From positions 1 to 32,000 of the forward strand of contig JACPWU010000039.1 in the NCBI GenBank assembly GCA_016196885.1: 32,000 nucleotides of DNA, read 5' to 3'. Under the pieces are notes generated by a model. It was given only the letters and a program-made list of their open reading frames with translations. It searched no databases and was not told the DNA's origin. The position numbers were made by a program, and so were the translations under genes. Of this stretch, positions 24,521 through 27,500 are shown one piece after another. Origin of the DNA: Chlamydiota bacterium. GTDB taxonomy: Bacteria; Auribacterota; JACPWU01. The first letter of the stretch is position 1, and every line of letters starts with the position of its first letter.

Positions 24521-27500
24521 ATGAAAAAAACATTTTTTCGTCTAAAACATCCCTTTTTTTGTCTTATCCGCGTTATGGTTGCGCTCACCTTCTTCCTCAA
24601 TGATTTTTCATTTCTTCTGGCTCAAAACAGTTCTCCCGGGAAAGAAGGGGTATTAACTCCTTATCCTATTGGAAAAGAGGGAGTTATGTTAAAGAGGGAT
24701 GAAAAAATAAGTCCATTAGACAGGCCGTTGCATTTATCGGGGGATTTGGGAGAGATTCTTGAATTTTCACCTCTTGAGGGGCGTCCCATGGTTTATGTGG
24801 TGGAAGATGTTCACGGGGATAACGAGGTTCAGGAAAGAATAGAGGAAATTATAGAACATTTTCCTACTTCTGACTCTCATCTTCCAGCCATTTTTCTTGA
24901 GGGGGCTAGCGGGAAAATGGGGATGAGTTTTTTCAAGGGATATCCGGACAAGGAGGCATTGGAGCTCTGTCGGAAGAAATGGGTTGTGGAGGGAAAAATC
25001 AGTGGGGGGGAATCGTTCTTGGTGGGAGAGGGCGTAGAAGGGTATGGGGTAGAAGATAGGAAAGAATATTGGGAAAATATAGAACGGATGGGAAGGCTTT
25101 TGGAAGCAAGAGAATCTGAAGAAACCGAATGGAGGGTTTTAGACGAAATAGTACAAGGCTTAAGAAAGCAGATTTATTCTAAGGAGCTTCTAAAAGGAGT
25201 TGAAATGAGGGAGAGATATGAAAGAGGAGAGTTGGAGATTGGAAAATATATAAATCAAGTATCAAATATCAAAGATCAAAATGACAAATCAAATATTAAT
25301 TTCAATGATCTTTCGAGATCATCGTATGCAATGAAAGTTCTTTTTGTAGTCGCCCCATTTATGGGGCTGCCCGATGAATCGGGCGACTACAAAAAGAACT
25401 TTCATTGCAAATATTTAGCCATTCAAAGGTTTATCAAACTTCAAGCCTTTGAAGAAAAAATAGATCCGAAACAGGCTGAAGACGAATACCTTTCTTTTCT
25501 ATCTGAATTGGAAAAAAAACTCCCCAAGGAAGAGGTTAAGGAAATTTTGAGAAATGTATTGGAATATCGGCTCGGACGTCAGACGCAGGAAGAACATTAT
25601 GCTTTGTTAAGTCGATATCTGGATCAAGTAGAGGTTTCTCGCTATCAAAATTTAAAACTTCTCTTTAAAGAGACACAGATGATGAAGGGGATTGAGTGGA
25701 AAACAATGGAGAAGGAGTTGAATGAGTTGGAGGAGAAAATGCTCGACATGCTTGCCAAGAACGAGACACAGAAAAAATTATTGGCTGTAGAGGAAAAATA
25801 TAGAGTGTTGAAAAAGATTGTGGCCATGGAAGCAGGAAAAGAAGAGATACGAAAGTCGATATTTCAGGAGTACTGGACGGATATTGTGAAAGGGATCAAG
25901 GAATTGGATGGGAGCATCAAACTAGAAATTCCAAAAGAAAGTCTTGAAAAAGCAAGGGCCTTTTACGAACAGGTTTTAAAAAGGGATGCAATCATTCCTG
26001 AAAAGTTGATTCAAAAAATCGAAGAGAAAAATATTAGACAAGCCGTTTTGATCGTGGGGGGATTTCATGCCCAGGCTGTGAAAGAGTGCTTAAAGAGAGA
26101 AAAAATGGGATACTGCCTCATTGCTCCCAAGGCGGCTCAGAAAGACAGCCGGAACGCATATTTTAAAGATGTCAAAGAAATCTATCAGGCCAGACAGTTT
26201 TTAGCGCTTCCCACTTTGGATATGAAAATAGCTGAAAGGGATTGGATGGGGACAGGGAAGATTTTAGGAGAGTTGGGGGAGAATTTAATCAGCGAAACCC
26301 GAAAGAGTCATCCCATTACGAAAGAATATTTTGAAAAATGGATTGCGGATATAGAAGAAAGAGCTTCTGACACGGGAGAGGCAAAATTTTTAGTGGGGGT
26401 GGTGGCGGGCTTAAGAGAAAAACATTTAAGCAAGGGTGAAGAAGGCATAAAAGCAGATATTCCGACGGATGCCGAGATCATTCATCTTTTAAATAAAGGA
26501 GGAGTGACAGCAAAGCTGACGCTCATGTATTTGAGACAGGTGCTCACTCAAAGTGAATATCAAGCAATCTTGAAGAGAGTTGGAATGGAGGAAAAACCGT
26601 TGGTCGTGGCCACAGCCGAAGAGGGGGATGACGGAGGCTATATCGCAAAAGGCGAAGAGTCAAAGAAAGAATTTGAAGAGAATAGAAGGCTTGGACTATA
26701 TAAGAAGGCAAGGAATAAAGAGTTAGAGGAAGAATTTAGAGATCTCATTCGAGGCGAAGATGGAAGAATCCCCAAAGTCTATGTCATTCCAGCCCTTGTG
26801 AAGGGGAGAGAGGATTATTTATTGGGATATCGGGATATGAAGAAGAACATTATTTATGTAACAGAGGAGGTATTAGGGGTTTTACGCCGAGGGCCTCCGA
26901 GCGTGATCAGGGAATACTTTTGGCATGAAGCGCATGAGTCTTCAAATCCAGCCTATCATTATGAATTGATTGTCCAGCAGCAGAGGGAATTCCCAGAGAA
27001 TTATGAAGGACGCGGGTACGAAAAGGTTCAAAGTTCTAGGACTTGGGGAGGAGGAAATGAATTTTGGATGGACCTAAATTCATGGAAAATTGCCAAGGGA
27101 ATATTGGGAGAAAAACTTAGATTTGTGATTGATGGAATGATCAAAGCTCGAGGCCCATTCAAAAGTATGGAAGAGGCATTAGGAGCCTATCGGGAAATCT
27201 ATGGAGAACCCCCTCCAAAGGTTTGGAAGAAAATTCGTCAAGGTAAGAATCTTGAATATTATGAAAAGTGGATGATAAAATTTGGGATTAAAGACATGAT
27301 GGATTTAGTGCGATTAGAGTCCCTTATGCTCTATAATTCTGGAAGAAGTTGTTTGTCTTTTCTAGAAGAGGCTTATAGAGAGAACTTCACTTCCTATTGG
27401 CCCTATTTTCTAAAATTCACTAAACAATCTAAGGTGCTTATTTCCGCATGGGACGCGTTAGTAAAAATGAAGCCTATGATTGTGGATTTGGAGGTTTTAA

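Follow-up and report, generated by a model that had tools for sequence, protein, structure and literature searches.

We have analysed a stretch of 32,000 nucleotides (positions 1 to 32,000, forward strand, of contig JACPWU010000039.1 in the assembly GCA_016196885.1, labelled Chlamydiota bacterium), the whole of which is referred to below as the window. At its 3′ end lies the 5′ part of a giant gene (24521 to 32000, plus strand) that runs beyond the window. The product has 6849 amino acids in the NCBI record, and an AAA_5 domain lies near residue 2240 of the frame in the window. This gene is host to a near-perfect palindrome of 83 bp (25327 to 25409), recognized by its self-complementarity and folding, that we call copy 1. 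A second element (copy 2; 15040 to 15172) lies between two minus-strand genes, one ubiX-like (flavoprotein) and the other ubiE-like. The two share a pair of short tagged hairpins having the layout of repetitive extragenic palindromes (REPs), and it is the nature of this pair, together with that of the arms surrounding it in copy 1, that is considered here.

Copy 1 consists of two 22-nt REP units placed between a left outer arm GCAATGAAAGTTCTTTTT (25328 to 25345, plus strand), found in copy 1 alone, and a right outer arm AAAAAGAACTTTCATTGC (25391 to 25408, plus strand) that is its exact reverse complement. Unit A (25346 to 25367, plus strand) has the tag GTAG-TC, a stem GCCCCA/TGGGGC and the loop TTTA; unit B (25369 to 25390, minus strand) has the same tag, a stem GCCCGA/TCGGGC and the loop TTCA. 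They form a head-to-head heterodimer with a spacer of 1 nt. Self-complementarity of 25328 to 25408 extends over 74 of 81 positions, with the first 28 pairs from the ends all perfect, and one further flanking pair (T25327 with A25409) brings the palindrome to 83 bp. A reading made previously from the sequence only had described a perfect outer stem of 27 bp enclosing two hairpins. The stem is indeed perfect, but its length is 25 to 29 bp, set by the formation of the small hairpins. The nested structure is the best fold as DNA (25 bp of outer stem closing two hairpins of 6 bp each; minimum energy −39.8 kcal/mol, z = −14, with 0 of 200 shuffles equally stable), while as RNA a single long hairpin is slightly ahead of the nested form (−60.2 compared with −58.0 kcal/mol). 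A separate small hairpin, ATGATCT-TTCG-AGATCAT, is present in the coding sequence directly upstream of the palindrome, at 25304 to 25321.

The 81 bp of 25328 to 25408 make up 27 in-frame codons (residues approximately 270 to 296 of the giant protein), translated as AMKVLFVVAPFMGLPDESGDYKKNFHC. The start on a codon boundary and the unbroken frame (open from 24458 to 31999) are both as the sequence-only reading had them, and so is the recurrence of the core: the two 22-nt blocks are found again in copy 2 with no mismatch, unit B at 15065 to 15086 (plus strand) and unit A at 15111 to 15132 (minus strand). The blocks have four exact matches in the window where none is expected from shuffles. That reading had also allowed for an assembly artefact. 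An independent NCBI assembly (L150; contig JACOUD010000041.1, GCA_016178005.1; we denote loci retrieved from other sources by L numbers, and proteins by P numbers) is 99.98% identical to the window, with one mismatch in 7566 nt and none in the element. Copy 1 is unchanged there, and is therefore not an artefact of a single assembly.

The layout of the units, i.e. GTAG-TC followed by a stem strand GCCCSA, a loop TTYA and a stem strand TSGGGC, is that of the GTAG-tagged REPs. All the DNA fetched contains 449 perfect hairpins tagged by GTAGT, with 41 distinct stems, and the loop is TTYA in 429 of them. Scrambled 5-nt tags retrieved between 0 and 8 hairpins, while the tag GTAGC retrieves a second, real class of REP in 79 copies. 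When no selection for pairing was applied, 76% of stem positions were paired, compared with 50% in shuffles (maximum 55%). Stem pairs 2 to 5 alternate between CG, TA, GC and AT, while the TTYA loop is constant, as are the closing pairs, G-C and A-T. Compensatory stems combined with a constant tag and loop argue for recognition of a hairpin plus its tag, rather than for a coding or purely sequence-based constraint; to judge from these stems, recognition of the family is structure-based. The dimers are head-to-head with the GTAG tags outermost and have spacers of 1 to 30 nt, both in the two window copies and in the 96 stretches obtained by scanning metagenomes for doublets. At most of the genome loci scanned the unit is followed, 3 to 30 nt on, by a related hairpin ending in RACTAC, giving an inverted doublet. 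Rfam contains no relevant family (searched with the window at the gathering threshold and with six loci at E ≤ 1), and the exact hairpin strings gave only an unrelated Yfr1 terminator in the literature.

We note that a head-to-tail tandem array of REPs with a period of 34 nt (GTAGTCGCCCRATTYATCGGGC + AGGTTTCTCTCT) is present in L035 at approximately 5800 to 6000, unlike the usual inverted dimers. Other GTAG REP classes with a TTTA or TTCA loop coexist with the present one at many loci, including L005:1430-2130 and the flanks of L090 and L096. The class GTAGCGCAGGACTTTAGTCCTGC, with 79 copies in the loci, sometimes encloses GTAGTY dimers.

Many copies and a very wide distribution characterize the family. 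In a scan with the pattern GTAGTCGCCCSATTYATSGGGC, each GTDB species was represented by one genome; the names of taxa are those of the record titles. Exact 22-mers were found in at least 51 stretches of these genomes, where by our own estimate about 0.5 chance matches are expected. Three Stahlbacteria metagenome-assembled genomes (MAGs) have at least 13, at least 9 and at least 5 contigs carrying the 22-mer. Among the matches listed it is present also in MAGs labelled WOR-3, Zixibacteria, Poribacteria, Nitrospirae, Nitrospinota, Elusimicrobiota, Planctomycetota, Doudnabacteria, Proteobacteria and Actinomycetota, and more than 10 phylum labels are represented among them; a scan of viral contigs with the 22-mer gave no match. 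A single locus, L104, has 24 REP units in 13.8 kb. Nearer the source, there are two dimers in the 32-kb window and two in 10.9 kb of its sister MAG.

Copy 2 is a miniature inverted-repeat transposable element (MITE) of 133 bp that has a target-site duplication and carries the REP dimer as cargo. It is bounded by a perfect 23-bp terminal inverted repeat (TIR), the left copy of which, AGGCATATGCACTTGATTCCCCT, occupies 15041 to 15063 (plus strand) and the right copy 15149 to 15171 (minus strand). The target-site duplication ATGAAAAA lies outside this, at 15032 to 15039 and at 15173 to 15180 (both plus strand); the string AATGAAAAA is present at 15031 to 15039 and 15172 to 15180. The 24-nt spacer between the units starts with AATCCATGCA, like the MITE family described below. 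In L070 and L074 the TIR sequence GCATATGCACTTGATTCCCCT recurs, identical, at the ends of similar elements, and diverged versions bound elements in L004, L056, L077, L101, L123 and L134; the family has members in at least 10 loci. Their interiors have in common GGCAAGAACYT ahead of the first GTAG, and a spacer starting with AATCCATG. The 8-bp direct repeats of the members vary from copy to copy (ATGAAAAA in the window, TTAGTAAA in L070, TTTCATAA in L077 and TTATCGAA in L134). Elements with the same type of TIR that contain no REP are found in L094 and L122. Since the TIR is shared across loci, including these REP-less elements, copy 2 is a MITE that carries a REP dimer. It has TIRs and an 8-bp target-site duplication, and is non-coding and multi-copy. 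Two Logan contigs from other runs (L152 and L153) both end at position 15070 of the window, i.e. TIR start + 29; a graph with k = 31 would branch there if the MITE is repeated.

The perfect 23-bp outer stem, the 24-nt insert and the suspected target duplication AATGAAAAA of copy 2 had all been described in the sequence-only reading. The stem and insert were confirmed and the duplication is real, other members of the family having 8-bp duplications of their own. That reading had gone on to argue for a structure-dependent element from the unrelated outer stems around identical cores; this argument is not supported as it was put, the stem of copy 2 being the TIR of a separate MITE family. The Correia/NEMIS elements are examples of bacterial MITEs with TIRs and target-site duplications. 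Copy 2 is like these in its TIRs, its target-site duplication, its non-coding nature and its multiple copies, to which it adds the cargo of a REP dimer. Presumably the MITE was moved by a DDE transposase, with ATGAAAAA duplicated on insertion.

Over its N-terminal part, the giant protein has its closest homologues (41 to 46% identity) in Chlamydiae-labelled MAGs. In an alignment of the kind proposed in the sequence-only reading, they match the protein on either side of copy 1 and lack the 27-amino-acid segment. The segment lies in a linker between two anchors, a conserved D and a conserved (A/T)IQ. Nine residues separate these in P0002, and nine in the window protein after removal of the 27 residues, while there are eight in P0001 after removal of a 9-residue segment of its own. 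This correspondence (9 compared with 8 to 9) favours all 81 bp as the insert. The segment in P0001, VIASEAKQS (L149:10658-10683), is in the same linker and is encoded in frame by the 26-mer GTCATTGCGAGCGAAGCGAAGCAATC, which is identical or near-identical in unrelated contigs (L109:2941, L117:7847, and L139:2140 and 3715), often as inverted pairs; no match to it was found in the literature. The paralogue P0003 (L160:2650-3774) has an unrelated palindrome of about 115 bp, again in frame and in the same linker, with CTCGAGGCTCGA-type arms; it occupies codons around YIKQLEARGSKLEA...SSLEPRASSQNYP, with arms CTCGAGGCTCGAGGCTCGAAGCTCGAGG / CCTCGAGCCTTGAGCCTCGAGCTTCGAG. Counting those of P0001, P0003 and the window, three different palindromic repeats have entered this one linker in related genes. 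P0001 also has peptides related to the P0003 palindrome (LEARSSKLEA and SSLEPRAS) close to its N-terminus. A peptide search for other proteins with the 27-residue segment gave no candidate and is uninformative, and record look-ups for the UbiA open reading frame (ORF) and for P0002 gave no entry. An alternative insertion of 118 nt, suggested by Logan contig L151, which stops at 25297, and by an 8-nt direct repeat CAAATATT at 25290 and 25408, was rejected; its removal would create a stop codon and a frameshift.

Dimers of the family lie within long open frames of at least eight other distinct genes in the loci fetched, and Pfam matches were found in all eight of the dimer-bearing frames checked. 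The genes include those for a B12-binding radical SAM protein, an acyltransferase, a HEAT-repeat protein and a glucanotransferase. The in-frame dimers encode the recurrent peptides VVAPFMG...PD(E/K)SG(D/N)Y or SCPIYGA...PINRATT. For a dimer with a 1-nt spacer GTA-GTC is the only stop-free frame (on our own reading of the sequence), and this is why copy 1 starts on a codon boundary. The in-frame insertion that had been likened to Rickettsia palindromic elements (RPEs) in the sequence-only reading is seen in copy 1 and in these eight or more other genes. We also observed a frame of 3804 codons (L096:942-12353) in which two complete sets of sigma-70 domains and tetratricopeptide (TPR) repeats are accompanied by an in-frame REP dimer. 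It is oddly long and stop-free, and spans what are apparently several genes.

A candidate for the enzyme acting on the family, a REP-associated tyrosine transposase (RAYT), was found by profile search. The ORF L053:7298-7780 encodes 161 amino acids with the motifs HVH and Y-x3-HP. It passes the Pfam Y1_Tnp cutoff (29.9 bits, compared with 23), and its best match in the PDB is 4er8, the TnpA-REP of E. coli (E = 2e-7). Upstream of the gene are two REPs of the family on the plus strand, 15 and 43 bp away, and two more are found at its 3′ end on the minus strand; the REP upstream is identical to unit A of the window at 21 of 22 positions. The protein has 582 homologues. Among the matches listed most have 132 to 160 amino acids, identity is 53 to 76%, some are named RayT by the Joint Genome Institute (JGI), and WOR-3, Zixibacteria and Chloroflexi are the source of several. 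Four homologues were placed in their genomic context, from Zixibacteria (L154), WOR-3 (L155), a Chloroflexi-labelled contig (L157) and a Stahlbacteria MAG rich in the 22-mer REP (L159). REPs of the form GTAGTY/6-bp stem/TTYA lie 6 to 130 bp from both ends of the gene in 5 of 5 cases (L053, L154, L155, L157 and L159). Bracketing of the RAYT by REPs, seen here in five genomes, corresponds to the REPtron, the arrangement by which RAYT-REP systems are defined. The check for RAYT transposases suggested in the sequence-only reading has in this way proved well directed, with homologous RAYTs flanked by the family REP in five genomes other than the source. The protein associated with the family is nearer to TnpA-REP than to the TnpA of IS200. 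Palindrome-associated transposable elements (PATEs) of IS200/IS605 have subterminal hairpins that match the ends of a resident IS200/IS605 copy; no IS200/IS605 copy with these ends turned up in the window or the loci, although no dedicated test was made.

A REP-like 22-mer, GTAGTTGC[CT]CAATT[CT]ATTG[AG]GC, is present within the RAYT coding sequence itself, approximately 118 to 133 nt from the start (L053:7415-7436, L155:3133-3154 and L159:3118-3139); the copy in L053 encodes VVAQFIG.

A regular-expression search for HUH/Y motifs in the first 51 loci yielded no RAYT, the cognate gene emerging only by the profile search, and all-against-all clustering of the neighboring ORFs in these loci returned common signalling domains only (GGDEF, GAF and HD). 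Several Y1_Tnp genes close to REPs were rejected as partners: that in L005 is bracketed by a different GTAG REP, GGAGTAGGGCGTTTACGCCCGT, those in L122, L139 and L144 have GGGGTCAGG-type TIRs, and that in L104 has a 19-bp GGGGACGG-type TIR. The GGAGTAGGGCGTTTACGCCCGT repeat brackets a 182-amino-acid RAYT in a Stahlbacteria contig (L005:1430-2130). The genes L122:2963-4039, L139:151-1219 and L144:1250-2370 encode proteins of 330 to 343 amino acids in which Y1_Tnp is joined to the C-terminal helix-turn-helix of DnaA, and have perfect TIRs of 25 to 29 bp starting with GGGGTCAGG; they match the 'TIRYT' class, with its GGGGWSAS motif, as that class is described by Di Nocera 2013 (PMC3733652).

On this basis we conclude, with a probability of about 0.82, that both sites carry a head-to-head GTAG-REP heterodimer, resembling a REP doublet forming a hairpin (REPIN) or a bacterial interspersed mosaic element (BIME), that is the non-autonomous partner of a RAYT (TnpA-REP) tyrosine transposase of the HUH/Y1 type. 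By analogy with known RAYTs, the enzyme would bind and cut a single-stranded hairpin plus tag such as is provided by each unit. It would act on single-stranded DNA in the source organism, copying the dimer without generating a target duplication. The copy at 25328 would have survived because its 81 bp correspond to 27 codons, the frame GTA-GTC-GCC is stop-free and the linker is hypervariable. The putative mobile core is the 45-bp REP dimer. In that sense the mobile, structure-dependent element of the sequence-only reading is retained, as a hairpin-based mobile family with co-varying stems; the arbitrary outer stems it had attributed to the element are not a property of it.

Several observations weigh against this conclusion. 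Mobility is deduced from sequence, and no transposition has been observed. Both the link to a RAYT and the high REP counts come from genomes other than the source. The L053 ORF scores 58 bits against the NCBIfam model REP_Tyr_transpos, below the curated cutoff of 80, and the five other Y1 genes near REPs bear different flanking repeats, so that proximity alone is unspecific. The homologues of the giant protein are only 41 to 46% identical in a hypervariable region, making the boundaries of the insertion approximate. Lastly, copy 1 is itself unusual, being the only one of about 115 dimers with 18-bp arms and a 1-nt spacer.

The arms are the feature on which explanations of copy 1 differ. Directly abutting complementarity of the flanks is 19 bp in copy 1 and 0 to 3 bp in about 110 other dimers, so that its arms stand apart from the family and do not characterize it. 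Most likely, judging from the spacing of the anchors, the 81-bp palindrome went in complete, as a unit derived from a donor copy; REP dimers embedded in longer palindromes are described in PMC3733652, and in the account given there empty targets were not found. Alternatively, the 45-bp dimer alone might have been inserted, with the arms arising later from fold-back of a nascent strand on the REP hairpin, for which 18 nt of the adjacent gene served as template. This would be template switching, or extension of a quasi-palindrome, with one arm ancestral and a net insertion of 63 bp. Such hairpin-templated synthesis would account for arms that are unique and abut the dimer exactly when other dimers have so little flank complementarity, and no other REP-associated copy of the arm sequence was found within three mismatches in about 1 Mb of the loci. 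It agrees too with the lack of a direct repeat at the ends of 25327 to 25409 and with a raw gap of 20 residues relative to P0001, and 63 and 18 are both multiples of three. But it predicts 15 residues between the anchors, where removal of all 27 residues gives 9 compared with the 8 to 9 of the homologues, and neither arm is recognizably similar to the homologues. We consider this the less likely route to the arms, with the odds well against it.

If copy 1 were instead a small MITE of the TIR type, mobilized by a DDE transposase, the dimer would be its cargo and the 18-bp arms its TIRs. Copy 2 is exactly such a composite, and exact inverted repeats of 10 bp or more lie within the 70-nt flanks of 16 of 82 non-redundant dimers but of none of 82 displaced controls. 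Yet the missing direct repeat at 25327 to 25409 and the uniqueness of the arms in the related loci, which suit synthesis on the hairpin, both speak against a MITE, and, in contrast to the known MITE family, the dimer sits exactly in the middle and is accompanied by no internal MITE sequence; a resemblance between the arms and the MITE interior (AAGTTCTT / AAGAACTT) was weak and unconvincing by eye. On balance this origin is improbable. Still more so is the proposal that, instead of a mobile insertion, we have here a hairpin under selection for a structural or regulatory role in the gene or its mRNA (a pause site, stabilizer or cruciform). The predicted structure is very stable, and effects of REPs on mRNA stability and termination are mentioned in PMC3733652, but the hairpin corresponds to no Rfam family, the same 22-mers are dispersed over unrelated contexts and phyla, and the homologues do not have the segment; as a primary explanation it is very unlikely, though the palindrome may conceivably have acquired a secondary, exapted role. 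An assembly artefact, due to fold-back or a chimeric join, has hardly any likelihood. Errors of amplification or assembly can create strong palindromes and Logan contig L151 stops 30 nt ahead of this one, but the sequence is identical in the second assembly, the gene is in frame with homology on both sides, and the core is a widespread natural repeat.

A broader conjecture, which we put forward tentatively and regard as rather doubtful, is that one REP-RAYT lineage crossed many phyla near-unchanged, writing VVAPFMG...PDxSGxY into unrelated proteins, and here made an 83-bp palindrome either by hairpin-templated synthesis or by mobilization of a 'grown' REPIN. Independent colonization of one linker by three unrelated palindromic repeats suggests that hairpin-prone sites could attract further palindromic insertions.

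The element is best described, from the comparisons available to us, as a new family of a known kind, the GTAG REP, fitting the framework of Di Nocera 2013 (PMC3733652) in every respect tested. That paper describes 24 families of GTAG REP in several phyla, head-to-head heterodimers (with spacers of 1 to 2 bp in Opitutus terrae, a bacterium of the Planctomycetes-Verrucomicrobia-Chlamydiae (PVC) group), intragenic dimers encoding 20 to 30 residues, and RAYT genes flanked by REPs or TIRs. The present GTAGTY/TTYA family is set beside the 24 by description and not by sequence. The GTAG tag and short hairpin of the REP/BIME/REPIN and RAYT/TnpA-REP systems, as these are presented by Nunvar 2010, Bertels & Rainey 2011 (PMC3116915), Messing 2012 (PMC3479197) and Di Nocera 2013 (PMC3733652), are found here also. 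So are compensatory stems, head-to-head heterodimers, many copies per genome (here in relatives), a single small Y1/HUH gene between inverted REPs, and dimers that sometimes lie in longer palindromes. By contrast, the hosts here are uncultivated (Stahlbacteria, WOR-3, Zixibacteria, the Chlamydiota-labelled MAG and others), and one 22-mer extends across phylum labels where REP families are usually lineage-specific. The closest parallel by description is with the GTAG-17/-19 dimers of O. terrae (PMC3733652), which are like those of the window in their PVC-group host and in having 1 to 2 bp between the partners, and many of which lie inside ORFs and add 20 to 30 residues; copy 1 differs from them in its additional 18-bp perfect arms.

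The likeness to RPEs is confined to in-frame insertion behaviour, the host here being a Chlamydiota-labelled MAG. RPE-1 is longer than the present element. RPEs (Ogata 2002 and Claverie & Ogata 2003, as cited in PMC3733652) are likewise in-frame palindromic repeats whose extra peptides are tolerated. RPE-4 and RPE-6 are presented in PMC3733652 as equivalent to tagged REPs; their tag is CGTC where that here is GTAG, host and sequence differ, and no link to a RAYT is described for RPEs.

What is new here is the sequence family and the hosts in which it occurs, its near-identity under different phylum labels, the carrier MITE and the perfect-armed coding palindrome; no new kind of system is revealed. 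The REP/REPIN-RAYT systems, studied mainly in Proteobacteria, are extended to uncultivated lineages, and the sharing of REP and RAYT across phylum labels is relevant to the idea of their vertical inheritance. The giant gene provides a concrete case of repeats adding peptide segments to proteins, one linker having absorbed three palindromic repeats in related genes. Such repeats also break short-read assemblies and can mislead annotation.

Some further features of the window are noted. Just upstream of the giant gene, a 152-nt intergenic segment (24284 to 24435) is absent from L150 but present in Logan contig L151, and its edge coincides with the end of another Logan contig (L148). The difference is an insertion/deletion polymorphism; it shows 1 nt of microhomology, and neither inverted nor direct repeats are obvious. 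Two more inverted repeats, at 564 to 709 (24 bp, 96%, enclosing 98 nt) and at 5448 to 5690 (22 bp, 91%, enclosing 199 nt), may be other MITEs; neither has a match in Rfam. The first of these contains GC-rich hairpins, including AAGCCGATGAATAATCGGCTT, with a loop that resembles the REP loop.

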